4,749 nt of DNA. Source: a virus (taxonomy: Duplodnaviria; Heunggongvirae; Uroviricota; Caudoviricetes). Both the position numbers and the translations under genes were made by a program. The notes under the pieces were generated by a model. The model was not told the DNA's origin, searched no databases, and saw only the letters and a list, made by a program, of their open reading frames with translations. Below are positions 1,615 through 4,328 of the stretch, in pieces (the first letter of the stretch is position 1; each line of letters opens with the position of its first letter). Location of the stretch: the IMG/VR virus record IMGVR_UViG_2778261344_000014; one strand, given 5' to 3'.

Positions 1615-2280
1615 TCAGACAAAACCAGCCGCTTTCCGGCGTTCATACTCCTGTTTCAGCAACTCAATTGGCGTTGGTCCCAACGGGCGTTTTGGTGCCG
1701 CCAGTTGTCGCCGTACTGGCGGAACGCTCAGGCCGTTACTAACATGCTTTGCCCATTTCGTCAGCTGCCGTTCTGCAAGCCGTTTTAATTCCCCTTCGGT
1801 CATCTGGCGTTCAATCCCCTTTGAACGCATCTCGAGGCAAATGTGATACAGCACAGGCTGAGGCCACGGATATTTGTCGCTTCCGTTATATCGCCAGGAC
1901 TCATTACGCCAGCGGCGATACTCCTCCATCACAGCATCCACCGTCAGGCCAAATGGATTGGCCCCGCTTTCCGAAATCAGCGCCACAAACTCAGCCAGGT
2001 CCGGAGGCCATGTTTCACCCGCCCGGCAGCGGTCCATGCACTGGCGGCAGACCTGCCGGATTTGCTGCTCAGTCATCGCGCCAATCTGTGCAATCCAGAG
2101 CTTCGAAGGTGCGGCCCCGTTCTTCTGGGTCCAGCGGTTCGAATAAACCTCCCCCATGAGTTCCCACAGCTTCCAGGCCGTTTCCGTCGCTGATAAATCC
2201 GTTTTCACGTTCCCACTGCTCACGTGCTGCCCGAATTTCCTGAACTGCCCGTGATGCGGTGCCACCTGGTGCTGCTGCAT
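1615..2280 (-). CDS. Replication protein P-like DnaB helicase loader
   Basis: The 221-aa ORF has ATG at 2280-2278 with a strong SD AAGGGGG (2293-2287, minus strand). Its C-terminal half (DLAEFVALISE..., YPWPQPVLY, ELKRLAERQL, PPVRRQL, LKQEYERRKAAGFV) parallels lambda P as recalled (FVAWCREE..., YPWKSNAHY, AELRRKAADEL, PEPVKQLP, KIAEIKAKFGL). Alternative starts are at 2157 and at 2076, the latter in an ATGACTGA overlap with the initiator stop. Confidence 0.6.
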   Translation of the reverse strand: MQQHQVAPHHGQFRKFGQHVSSGNVKTDLSATETAWKLWELMGEVYSNRWTQKNGAAPSKLWIAQIGAMTEQQIRQVCRQCMDRCRAGETWPPDLAEFVALISESGANPFGLTVDAVMEEYRRWRNESWRYNGSDKYPWPQPVLYHICLEMRSKGIERQMTEGELKRLAERQLTKWAKHVSNGLSVPPVRRQLAAPKRPLGPTPIELLKQEYERRKAAGFV

Positions 2281-3109
2281 GGTTTACCCCCTTGCTGACT
2301 GGTTTAACCTGCGCCCTGACGTGATTTACGTGACGGGCGAATTTCTGCTCCCACTGAATCTGCGTAAACACTTTCCCCTCCGCTGCCCAGTAGTCCCGGA
2401 ATGCGGTAAGTTCAGCAGGTGTAAATTCTGTCTCCGGCAAAGCCATCCCCCACAACGCAGCCCGTCGTCGAAAATCCCGTGACGGATACCAGCTATCGGT
2501 CATCGGAAATTTTCCGATGGGTTCGCTCAGGCCATCCAGGAATACATGGGGGGCTGCCTGTAACGACAAAACTTCCTGCTCACTGATCGGAGCACTCTCG
2601 CGTGCGTTATGTGTGGGGTTTAGATCTTTGGGTTCCTTTGGGTTCCGTGATCCGTTTTTGGGTGTCTTTGATGGAAAATTTGGGTGTCTTTGGTTATTTT
2701 CCATGCAACAAAGAGTTCCGTTTTTGGGGCTCTTTTGTGCTGAAACATAACCGTTTTCGGTACTGTTTTTATTAACAGCACCAATTTTACCCACCTTTAA
2801 AGACACCCGTTTTTGGGTGTATTCAGGCTCGGCAACACTTTCTTCTACACCGATAAGTCGGTACACCACAATTTGCTTTGTTCTGCCTTTTCTCTCACCG
2901 GTATCAACAATTAACCCAATCTCCATCAGGTGTCGTAAGCTGTCCTGCACAGTCTTTTTGTTCAGTTCCGTTACTTCTGCCAGTGCAGATACAGACGGGT
3001 ATGCACACAAATCGGCACCGCACATATCAGCAAGCCAGGTCAATACAGACTTACTGGATGAACTGCCGGTTTTCACCTTTTTAGCCCATCGTAGTGCATC
3101 GATACTCAT
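2069..3109 (-). CDS. Phage replication initiator (lambda O analogue): N-terminal HTH domain plus C-terminal DnaT-like domain
   Basis: ATG at 3109-3107 with SD AGGGG (3119-3115, minus strand) gives 346 aa. The N-terminus MSIDALRWAKKVKTGSSSSKSVLTWLADM...LNKKTVQDSLRHLMEIGLI is HTH_36-like. The C-terminal region WYPSRDF...ELTAFRDYWAAEGKVFTQIQWEQKFARHV resembles the DnaT-type DNA-binding domain of phage initiators. The central linker is low-complexity and encodes the iterons. Gene order is initiator then helicase loader. Confidence 0.75.
   Translation of the reverse strand: MSIDALRWAKKVKTGSSSSKSVLTWLADMCGADLCAYPSVSALAEVTELNKKTVQDSLRHLMEIGLIVDTGERKGRTKQIVVYRLIGVEESVAEPEYTQKRVSLKVGKIGAVNKNSTENGYVSAQKSPKNGTLCCMENNQRHPNFPSKTPKNGSRNPKEPKDLNPTHNARESAPISEQEVLSLQAAPHVFLDGLSEPIGKFPMTDSWYPSRDFRRRAALWGMALPETEFTPAELTAFRDYWAAEGKVFTQIQWEQKFARHVNHVRAQVKPVSKGVNHAAAPGGTASRAVQEIRAAREQWERENGFISDGNGLEAVGTHGGGLFEPLDPEERGRTFEALDCTDWRDD
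2626..2824. repeat. Iteron array, candidate origin of replication inside the initiator gene
   Basis: A ~19-bp element CCGTTTTTGGGTGTCTTTG recurs at 2652-2670, 2679-2693, 2718-2736 and 2806-2820. The last copy is preceded by its inverted half AAAGACACCC (2799-2808), giving dyad symmetry. There is a degenerate copy at 2751-2770 and a tandem TTTGGGTTCC x2 at 2627-2646. The array falls in initiator codons ~96-161, as lambda ori does in O. Confidence 0.6.
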
Positions 3110-3632
3110 ACGAACCCCTGGCAGATATTTGTTTATCTGCAAAGTAATATTGATACTGCTGACGATACGCATGCTTGAAAGCAATAGCTTTTTCTATAAG
3201 CTCGTCAGTCTCACGTTCCACAACAGATGGATCCGCAAAAAGCAGTCCGGACTCCACCACATCGCCATATTCTTTGTTTAACCCGGCGATCATGTACGTG
3301 ATGCTTTTTCCGTCACTAATTTCACGATACAACCTGAAATCATTAATCCGGATAGCCTCCATAATTGCAGGCACTAGCGCCGTGAACTTTTCACGCTTAT
3401 CCCTGGTGTCGATAGCCTTCCAGCGTTCGAATATCTTCACTCGATTAACGCCAAGCGCTCGCTGATCAACCGCGCCACCTTCATCTGTGACACGCTGAAC
3501 ATCGATGTTCGGGCGCTCTTTCAAAACCCAGAATGCTTCAGTGATTAATATCGTCGCCTGCTCCTGTGTCATTCCTGGTCGACATATCCAGGCATCCAGA
3601 GCCTCACGAGCCTGTTCAGGAGTGATTTTCAT
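3081..3632 (-). CDS. 183-aa hypothetical protein in the cII/YdaT position, possibly a YdaT-like regulator
   Basis: ATG at 3632-3630 overlaps the last codons of the Cro-like gene by 17 nt, and the stop overlaps the initiator start by 29 nt, so the three genes are translationally coupled. The segment KIFERWKAIDTRDKREKFTALVPAIMEAI resembles the YdaT-family motif as I recall it; that recall is not verified. Confidence 0.65.
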   Translation of the reverse strand: MKITPEQAREALDAWICRPGMTQEQATILITEAFWVLKERPNIDVQRVTDEGGAVDQRALGVNRVKIFERWKAIDTRDKREKFTALVPAIMEAIRINDFRLYREISDGKSITYMIAGLNKEYGDVVESGLLFADPSVVERETDELIEKAIAFKHAYRQQYQYYFADKQISARGSYEYRCTTMG

Positions 3633-3843
3633 TGTTCAACCGCCCCGCCCGCTTTGCCTTACGATATTCGTCATAAACTTTGGGGTCGTACTGAAGTTCC
3701 CCGCCGGATGCCTCTTGCAGGCGCATCGCGCGACCTTCAGGAACTAGCTCTTGCCATTGAGAAACAGCAGATGGGTCAACGCCAGCAGCTTTCGCTACTT
3801 TGGCTTTCGTACCGTAAAAATTAATTACGTCTGATTTAAACAT
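3616..3843 (-). CDS. dicC: Cro-like HTH regulator of the DicC/YdaS family
   Basis: ATG at 3843-3841 with SD GGAGGTG (3853-3847, minus strand) gives 75 aa; E. coli DicC is 76 aa. The motif AKAAGVDPSAVSQWQELVPEGRAMRLQEASGGEL is YdaS/Cro-like. It is transcribed divergently from the dicA-like repressor. The ORF-track start at 3870 would leave no room for promoters. Confidence 0.7.
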   Translation of the reverse strand: MFKSDVINFYGTKAKVAKAAGVDPSAVSQWQELVPEGRAMRLQEASGGELQYDPKVYDEYRKAKRAGRLNNENHS

Positions 3844-3920
3844 CGCACCTCCAATATTGAGTTTTCTCAATGCTAATCACTCAAGGAATCTCAAGTCAAG
3901 GGTTATTAAGATATCTAAAT
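3844..3920. promoter_or_regulatory. Divergent promoter/operator region between the dicC-like and dicA-like genes
   Basis: A perfect palindrome TTGAGttttCTCAA (3857-3870) overlaps the predicted leftward promoter (-35 TTGACT at 3899-3894, 18-bp spacer, -10 TAGCAT at 3875-3870, minus strand). Direct repeats CTCAAG occur at 3880-3885 and 3890-3895, and TCAAGG at 3896-3901. The rightward promoter is not confidently placed. Confidence 0.6.
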
Positions 3921-4328
3921 ATGAACGAGAAAACTTTAGGTCAACGCATTAGAGAAAGACGTAAGCAGGTAGGCTTAAGTCAAAACGGTTTAAGCAAAGC
4001 TGCTGGCGTATCTGGCTCATCAATTTCATTATGGGAAAGTGACCATACAGCCCCGCGCGGGCAAAATTTGCATCGCCTCGCCGAGGTATTGCAATGTTCA
4101 CCAACCTGGATACTGTTTGGCGACGAGGACAAAACACCAGCTCCCCCTGTTTCACTCGATAGTACCCTAGACTTATCGGAAGATGAGTTAGAGATGCTGC
4201 GTTTGTATCGCGCACTTCCTAAATCAGAGCAACAAGCACAACTCAGCGAACTCCGCGCCCGCGTTGAGAATTTTAATCGCCTGTTCACCGAGCTATTAGA
4301 GGCTCGCAAACGCAACAAGCATCAATAA
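3921..4328 (+). CDS. dicA: DicA-like HTH (XRE family) prophage repressor, the cI analogue
   Basis: Starting at the internal ATG 3921 gives 135 aa, the length of E. coli DicA. The N-terminal HTH is LGQRIRERRKQVGLSQNGLSKAAGVSGSSISLWE. The segment LQCSPTWILFGDEDK and the C-terminal ...RARVENFNRLFTELLEARKRNKHQ match my recollection of DicA. It is divergent from a Cro-like gene and followed by a ydfA-like gene. No SD precedes 3921, so the mRNA may be leaderless. Confidence 0.85.
   Translation: MNEKTLGQRIRERRKQVGLSQNGLSKAAGVSGSSISLWESDHTAPRGQNLHRLAEVLQCSPTWILFGDEDKTPAPPVSLDSTLDLSEDELEMLRLYRALPKSEQQAQLSELRARVENFNRLFTELLEARKRNKHQ

Follow-up and report, generated by a model that had tools for sequence, protein, structure and literature searches.

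It is textbook knowledge that the origin of lambda-type phages lies inside gene O, and the annotated lambda iterons (TCCCTCAAAACGAGGGA, TCCCCTAAAACGAGGGA, TCCCTCAAATTGGGGGA and TCCCTCAAAACAGGGGGA) are located in that gene just past the part coding for the N-terminal domain (N-domain), followed by an A-rich block. Here we describe an array of five iterons with a similar placement, which occupies positions 2627-2825 of a 4,749-nucleotide (nt) stretch of Caudoviricetes DNA (IMG/VR virus record IMGVR_UViG_2778261344_000014; this whole stretch is called the window below) and lies inside the gene for a replication initiator of 346 amino acids (aa) at 2069-3109 on the minus strand. We consider it probable, at roughly 80%, that this array is the replication origin of a lambdoid prophage on the lambda plan, in which dimers of the initiator N-domain would bind the iterons and a DnaT-like C-terminal domain (C-domain) would recruit a P-like protein together with DnaB.

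The correspondence with lambda is one of design. Both loci have several iterons in the same orientation, about 18-26 bp long, with an internal dyad and an A-tract centre (lambda TCCCTCAAAACGAGGGA; window ACACCCAAAAACGGGTGT), and the common plan is a C-rich arm, an A4-5C centre and a G-rich arm (ACACCC-AAAAAC-GGGTGT in the window and TCCCTC-AAAAC-GAGGGA in lambda). In both, the initiator gene itself contains the iterons, which come immediately after the N-domain and separate the coding parts of the N- and C-domains, and a P-family gene follows that overlaps the initiator stop codon. A first interpretation of this DNA, made from its letters alone and called here the sequence-only reading, had proposed a lambda-like origin inside the initiator gene, and the layout, the position and the partner gene all agree with such an origin. 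It had also held that the iterons do not resemble those of lambda, which does not stand as worded: the type of site is related in design, whereas the arms, and hence the specificity, differ. Other differences are that the window C-terminus is DnaT-like and has no lambda O C-terminal domain, that the window has five iterons at 22-56 bp (about 11n) against four at 20-24 bp in lambda, and that lambda has an AT-rich block after the last iteron, with none clear in the window.

Closer relatives of the protein are found in phages. The phiV10/epsilon15-, Edno5/GF-2- and AB1/AP22-type proteins (PHROG 1032, 6643 and 391), which are annotated as 'replication initiation' or 'primosomal', share the N-terminal HTH_36 domain with 39-58% identity to the window protein; each has an array of its own, placed equally in the gene, with the common core CCC(A/G)AA(A/T)(A/T)YGGG, and in phiV10 the DnaT-like C-terminus and the P-like partner are also as in the window. 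These types differ in their arms (GAATGAT against AAAGACA in the window), in a spacing of 18 or 24 bp and in clearer 12-bp (A/G)GAACC repeats after the array, and no origin annotation was present in the records of these types that were inspected. The iteron plasmids (Rep_3/RepA, pi and TrfA) are alike in that a winged-helix initiator binds phased direct repeats, as the window initiator presumably would, but in the window the iterons are part of the gene rather than adjacent to it, and the helicase would be expected to be loaded via the phage P-like protein. A Rep_3-type plasmid origin was rejected because there was no Rep_3 match, the iterons are intragenic and the window contains no DnaA box (TTWTNCACA). 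Finally, DopC/DopE is a domesticated lambda O/P-like pair of Cellvibrionales and Oceanospirillales with an architecture identical to that of the window, namely an HTH_36 N-terminus and a DnaT C-terminal motif followed by a P-family gene; DopC was reported to be no longer an origin and to have no detectable iterons, whereas the window gene is the phage form that still has them (Brezellec et al., 2017; PMC5509034).

The iteron array in the initiator gene

All five copies of the dyad element have the same orientation, with the core CCCAAAAACGG(G) on the coding (minus) strand, and on that strand the repeat unit reads CAAAGACA-CCCAAAAACGG(G) with the flanking arm AAAGACA. The cores, at 2806, 2750, 2717, 2673 and 2651, have the A-tract on the coding strand in every case and are separated by 56, 33, 44 and 22 bp. 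These distances are close to multiples of 11 bp. Iteron 1 (2799-2824) is a palindrome, AAAGACACCC-GTTTTT-GGGTGTATTC, with the core CCCAAAAACGGG at 2806-2817, corresponding to gene nt 293; iteron 2 (2743-2769) is a degenerate dyad with the core ACCGAAAACGGT at 2750-2761; and iteron 3 (2710-2736) is the dyad AAAGAGTTCC-GTTTTT-GGGGCTCTTT with the core CCCAAAAACGGA at 2717-2728. Eight of the ten arm positions are self-complementary in iterons 2 and 3, the remaining two of iteron 3 forming G-T pairs on the plus strand. Iterons 4 (2673-2692; variant core CCCAAATTTTCC at 2673-2684) and 5 (2651-2670; core CCCAAAAACGGA at 2651-2662) both have the arm CAAAGACA and are without a second arm. The array is completed by a 10-mer, GGAACCCAAA, repeated twice in tandem at 2627-2646 on the same strand (Tandem Repeats Finder, TRF). 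The iteron 4 variant is present at the same rank in Edwardsiella EPP-1 (CCCAATTTTGG), and the Klebsiella and Pantoea L15 relatives have CCCGTTTTTTCC there.

Repeat finding, TRF and pattern searches recovered every repeat element that had been listed from the letters, with one adjustment of register. The 19-mers at 2652-2670, 2718-2736 and 2751-2769 were found in place, and the last copy falls at 2807-2825 rather than 2806-2820. The shorter copy is a 14-mer, TTTGGGTGTCTTTG, at 2679-2692; the inverted half-site AAAGACACCC at 2799-2808 is more precisely the second arm of palindromic iteron 1; and the tandem repeat CTTTGGGTTC/TTTGGGTTCC lies twice at 2626-2646 (TRF score 42). The placement in the linker-coding part was likewise borne out, as the cores cover codons 95-153 and the tandem 10-mers extend to codon 161 of the 346-aa open reading frame (ORF).

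The clustering of these elements was far above expectation. The 19-mer with up to three mismatches was matched three times against 0.01 expected, and the strict core CCCRAAWWYGG three times against 0.07 expected, all three inside the array; neither count was reached in 200 shuffles. The heptamer TTTGGGT has five copies in the window, all on one strand within 2627-2818. With the cores in reading phases 1, 0, 0, 2 and 0, one nucleotide sequence is translated as TQKR, PKNG or HPNF, depending on the copy. When the synonymous codons were permuted 2000 times with protein and codon usage fixed, AAAGACACCC with at most one mismatch occurred on average 0.29 times against three observed, and the top 7-mer 2.3 times against five observed, and no permutation reached either observed value; for the 11-nt core alone the over-representation was weak (3 against a mean of 1.4, p ~0.06). 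As the copies are in all three frames and the synonymous null was exceeded, the repetition is in the DNA and not in the peptide. The stretch had been proposed to be constrained both as protein code and as binding sites, and the excess over the synonymous null together with the arrays kept in relatives supports this, the function as sites being what we infer.

The protein encoded around the array has the make-up of an O-like replication initiator, as had been supposed, with an HTH_36-type N-domain, PHROGs common to lambda O, a DnaT-like C-domain and a P-family neighbour. The N-terminal DNA-binding domain (aa 1-90; 2840-3109, minus strand), presumed to read the iterons, matched HTH_36 with E 3e-4 in the window protein, which is below the Pfam cutoff, and with 1e-7 to 1e-13 in relatives. 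It also matched PHROG 391, 678, 345 and 8540 ('replication initiation O-like'), two of which, 678 and 345, were matched by the N-terminus of lambda O, and HHpred places HTH_36 in the lambda O N-terminus (PMC5509034). In an alignment of the N-domain, 20 positions are invariant across seven lineages, including the wing motif DTGE-x2-G-x-T, and the window protein could be aligned. The C-domain is a DnaT-like domain for binding single-stranded DNA (ssDNA) (aa 194-278; 2276-2530, minus strand; PF17948, E 1.4e-16), which also matched the NCBIfam DnaT model with E 3e-26, below the equivalog cutoff, and the DnaT chains 6aep, 4ou6 and 2ru8 of the PDB with E 1e-15 to 5e-19. The K/N/P/G-rich linker between the two domains is what the iterons encode. 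In addition, Pfam gave a weak echo of RepC and HTH families.

GATC (Dam) sites at 2623-2626 and 2648-2651 bracket the 10-mer repeats, with sites at the same places in EPP-1, Klebsiella L091, L097 and phiV10, and several relatives also have a GATC that overlaps the last iteron in its right arm (CGGGATCC / CGGATCAC). These recurrent sites hint at control by methylation or SeqA.

Arrays in relatives and modular exchange

A tblastn search with residues 1-90 returned 73 phage and 23 plasmid records (E 1e-8 to 1e-45), from which 16 lineages with the N-domain were fetched and compared with the window. In 16 of these 17 lineages an iteron array begins where the coding part of the N-domain ends, some 270-330 nt from the start of the gene: the window, EPP-1, Klebsiella L091, Pantoea L15, Pantoea Lij88, Providencia, phiV10, Edno5, Vibrio Her, Acinetobacter AB1 and Ab105-2phi, Burkholderia Bcep176, an EBPR podovirus, Bordetella pA, Arsenophonus and Moraxella Mcat8. 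Acinetobacter BS46 was the one lineage with no array. About 15 lineages share the core type CCC-A/T-rich-GGG. The sequence-only reading had looked for homologues that keep the protein linker and lack the nucleotide repeats, and the opposite was found, as the arrays are kept also where the frames differ.

The iteron units differ among the lineages. EPP-1, with an N-domain 74% identical, has the same iteron as the window (AAAGACACCCAAAAACGG) six times with spacings of 26, 33, 33, 33 and 22 bp, and Klebsiella L091 and Pantoea L15 have CCC(A/G)AAAACGGG with at least four and three strict cores, respectively; the first iteron lies at gene nt 293 in all of these and in the window. The type in phiV10, Providencia and Pantoea Lij88 is GAATGATCCCAAAAACGGGAT with 24-bp spacing, and Edno5 has ATCCCAAAATTGGGAT. 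Vibrio Her has CCCGAAAACGGTAC in at least five copies, the last four at 24 bp, and the two Acinetobacter phages AB1 and Ab105-2phi have CCCAAATTTGGG / GTACCGAAATTGGTAC. Bcep176 and Bordetella pA carry AGTCCCAAA(A/T)(T/C)(T/C)GGGAC, to which the iterons of the EBPR podovirus and Arsenophonus are similar. A different repeat is found in Mcat8 (locus L093, 1801-2052), where three tandem 84-bp units each have several copies of a GGGGGTACAATTTTGCA-type repeat; these units may be an expanded origin of another specificity at the same gene position. In nearly all the fetched loci that matched the strict core, every match fell within the array and the remainder of the 2-9 kb had none, the exception among the loci checked being Bordetella pA (L101). 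In each of the 80 IMG/VR alleles, the core matches were likewise limited to gene nt 293, 382 and/or 448.

The N-domain and its iterons are combined with different C-termini. They are joined to a DnaT-like C-domain in the window, phiV10, Klebsiella and Pantoea L15, to Phg_2220_C in EPP-1 and to a lambda-O-type C-terminus in Edno5, and the C-termini of Bcep176, AB1 and Her have no Pfam domain assigned. The downstream gene also differs among relatives and is P-like, a DnaB-like helicase or a primase-helicase. A sharp mosaic junction with Rac-type ydaU is located exactly at the downstream edge of the array, at 2620-2630: up to about 2629 the window is 91-92% identical in DNA to Rac-type ydaU, which covers the shared DnaT-like C-terminal half, and the N-terminal half of Rac-type ydaU (DUF1376) and its upstream DNA are unrelated to the window. 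At the equivalent place in Rac-type ydaU (L002, 3600-3720) no such iterons were found, just a 9-bp inverted repeat, GTTCAAACA-N13-TGTTTGAAC. The iterons therefore do not go with the DnaT domain, since Rac-type YdaU has that domain without them, and the N-domain and iterons form one exchange unit, or cassette. This agrees with the classical lambdoid rule, by which the N-terminal half of O is linked to the origin and the C-terminal half to the partner protein; in both lambda and the window, the N-domain with the origin (in the window, the putative origin) and the C-domain with its partner are exchanged separately.

Variation among close alleles was more modest in what it revealed. The 70 full-length alleles came from an IMG/VR scan that gave near-identical alleles, which are informative on polymorphism and not on diversity. 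The iteron stretch, with a proportion of variable sites of 0.149, was intermediate between the N-domain (0.109) and the C-terminal part (0.222). Gene nt 404-487, with iterons 4-5 and the 10-mers, was almost invariant; iteron 5 was nearly so and iteron 3 was the most polymorphic. The resulting signal of purifying selection is mild overall and clear at gene nt 404-487 only.

A proposed origin and competing explanations

Considering these results, we propose the following model for the use of the array. Dimers of the N-terminal winged-helix domain would bind the iterons, and the phased A-tracts and the spacing of about 11n would help to wrap the DNA into a complex like the lambda O-some. This complex would open an adjacent weak duplex, either the 2760-2789 spacer or the GGAACCCAAA repeats at 2627-2646, whereupon the DnaT-like C-domain would recruit the P-like protein with host DnaB and possibly hold the unwound strand. 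Transcription from the Cro-side promoter would traverse the origin, as in lambda.

Two stretches are candidates for the unwinding element. In the nearest-neighbour profile, the least stable 30-mer of the initiator gene is 2760-2789 (73% A+T, z = +2.7), which lies between iterons 1 and 2. In lambda, EPP-1, phiV10, Edno5, Bcep176, Klebsiella, Pantoea L15, Lij88 and Bordetella the 30-mer of lowest stability comes straight after the last iteron, and Arsenophonus shows a tie for its position. The low-stability stretch of the relatives usually overlaps tandem repeats of 10-12 bp that begin with (A/G)GAAYC and, in most lineages, follow the last iteron (L007, 2810-2845; L005, 2868-2891; L004, 2942-2977; L006, ~2970-3000); in phiV10, AACCAGTCATAT is present three times. 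These repeats may be an unwinding or helicase-loading element, and the two GGAACCCAAA copies at 2627-2646 are their positional counterpart in the window.

Several observations weigh against an origin on the lambda plan. The stretch right after the last iteron in the window is at about +0.7 standard deviations, with no clear AT-rich element. Among the 70 alleles, the core of iteron 3 has a G-to-A change in nine, no compensatory arm changes were seen across the dyads, and the common iteron 3 allele alters one arm only. The Pfam model of lambda O (PF04492) did not match the window protein and BLASTP against lambda O detected no similarity; direct similarity was hence discarded, with links at the profile level only, and the presumed homology to lambda O is distant, resting on the PHROG profiles and the published HHpred result. 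The putative exonuclease gene of prophage PPompW_132418 is frameshifted, and some such prophages are defective, so that the origin could be a relic in a given strain.

The alternative that survives best is nonetheless unlikely. It holds that the iterons are sites at which the initiator or another protein exerts control, through autoregulation, a transcription roadblock, 'handcuffing' or incompatibility, with the true origin elsewhere; a roadblock would act on the initiator's own gene and on P, and 'handcuffing' would concern copy number. Iteron arrays in plasmids have known control roles, and the missing AT-rich element directly after the array would be in keeping with such roles here. However, the layout, position and partner genes match lambda, where such sites are the origin, and in the relatives the duplex just past the last iteron is of low stability. 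The window contains no second cluster of cores, which argues against a separate origin on the same sites, other kinds of origin being outside this test, and the lack of a DnaA box also speaks against this explanation.

Less probable still is that the dyads act as single-strand hairpins, as a signal for primosome assembly or single-strand initiation that the DnaT-like domain or host PriA would recognize. The ssDNA-binding domain of the protein is compatible with this, and 2620-2830 folds far better than shuffles as ssDNA on both strands (z -4.0 and -3.6), which leaves some room for a hairpin-based role. Strong folding is, however, expected of palindromic sites and by itself does not separate duplex-binding from hairpin models; the symmetry is equal on both strands, as for duplex palindromes, and iterons 4 and 5 have no second arm. 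EPP-1, Edno5, AB1 and Bcep176 have iterons without a DnaT domain, and Rac-type YdaU shows the opposite. A hairpin signal read by DnaT is thus disfavoured, because it is the N-domain, and not the DnaT domain, that the array accompanies.

The notion that the repeats are a by-product of a low-complexity PKNG-like peptide repeat in a disordered linker, with no function in the DNA, is scarcely tenable and already largely refuted. In its favour, iterons 2, 3 and 5 are all in phase 0 and specify (S/T)(P/T)(K/E)NG, and the weak excess of the 11-nt core fits it. Against it, three frames are used, there is an inverted arm, and both the arm and the top 7-mer were more frequent than under the synonymous null; moreover, distant genera keep the nucleotide core in spite of differing linkers, and outside the arrays it is missing from nearly all loci.

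The prophage locus and its implications

The window is the immunity and replication region of a lambdoid Escherichia coli prophage, with most genes on the minus strand. Positions 2000-3200 are 98.3% identical to the PPompW prophages of enterohaemorrhagic E. coli (EHEC) strains; PPompW prophages with the cassette reside in EHEC strains that carry Stx2a. Of 5426 complete E. coli genomes, 907 have the array (2600-2850), and in one O157:H7 strain the match is 100%. A DicA-like repressor (ORF 3870-4328, plus strand; homologue annotated from ~3921) is followed on the minus strand by a P22-Cro/DicC-like gene (3616-3843), a YdaT-like gene (3081-3632), the initiator gene, a gene of the lambda P helicase-loader family (1615-2076) and a DUF1627 gene (819-1646). 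The P-like gene (PF06992, E 4e-16; PHROG 109, 'P-like helicase loader') adjoins the 3' end of the initiator gene, and its 462-nt homologue is called replication protein P in RefSeq. Its ATG at 2076 overlaps the initiator stop codon (ATGACTGA, minus strand, 2069-2076), which suggests translational coupling from the initiator to the P-like gene; the longest ORF, to 2280, overlaps the initiator by 212 nt and probably does not begin at the real start. The initiator coding sequence is annotated as 'phage replication protein' in PPompW and as 'DnaT-like ssDNA-binding domain-containing protein' in RefSeq, and no origin was annotated at the array in the records inspected. No promoter- or terminator-like sites were found in 2400-3300, giving no sign of an internal transcript or attenuator.

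An Rfam scan gave no match in the array, the sole matches in the window lying within 277-474. Two were above the gathering score, C4 antisense RNA (69 bits, E 1.5e-12) and the Hfq-binding RNA isrK (51 bits, E 3e-9), and a C4 a1/b1 target matched below threshold; the coordinates of these matches, all on the minus strand, are 277-361, 387-461 and 425-474. This region resembles a P1/P7-type antisense module for immunity or antirepressor control, downstream of the replication genes.

Some circular records contain the same cassette. In Arsenophonus paApi_AU2 (L100, 47 kb) and Bordetella pA (L101, 39 kb), two circular 'plasmids' that are non-mobilizable and have no replicon type in PLSDB, the N-domain and iteron cassette adjoins a primase-helicase or DnaB-like helicase gene; both probably represent phage-plasmids, or circular genomes of phages, with replication from such an origin. 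Two circular E. coli records described as complete plasmids, L090 (NZ_CP148379.1, 8461 bp) and L092 (NZ_CP148543.1, 15643 bp), contain only the prophage repressor-cro-ydaT-initiator-P region and cargo, again with no replicon type listed in PLSDB, and the initiator frame of L092 is broken by a premature stop near aa 190. These two may be natural mini-replicons like lambda-dv or assembly artefacts; if they are true mini-replicons, they would support the origin function.

A literature search on this iteron family or origin, on phiV10 or epsilon15 iterons and on HTH_36 with iterons found no prior description, subscription journals being outside its coverage, and the paper on the EHEC 'Eru' replication units (PMC8044961) does not mention DnaT, primosomal, ydaU or 'origin of replication'. 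A wider generalization, which we regard as speculative and rather doubtful, is that these arrays form a large group of intragenic phage origins with a near-universal dyad core (CCC, an A/T-rich centre and GGG) echoed by lambda, and that the cassette has been shuffled among at least three unrelated C-terminal domains that recruit the helicase. On this account, the DnaT-fused initiator would coat the unwound strand, as DnaT does in replication restart, so that helicase loading would be unlike that of lambda, and the origin may sustain mini-circles like lambda-dv.

The array is a further example of the known lambda-type design and not a new kind of element, and the accepted picture of lambdoid origins is unchanged; the cassette is widespread and useful for annotation, and will not surprise specialists. 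It provides a signature for finding origins in proteobacterial phages and phage-plasmids, namely clustered CCCRAAWWYGG about 300 nt into an HTH_36 gene. It is also a clear case of double constraint on one stretch of DNA, as protein code and as putative binding sites. In EHEC, the marked origin would offer a target for studies of prophage induction and escape replication. Furthermore, as a phage-borne counterpart of DopC/DopE, the window gene could help to test how an origin-binding initiator lost its origin.

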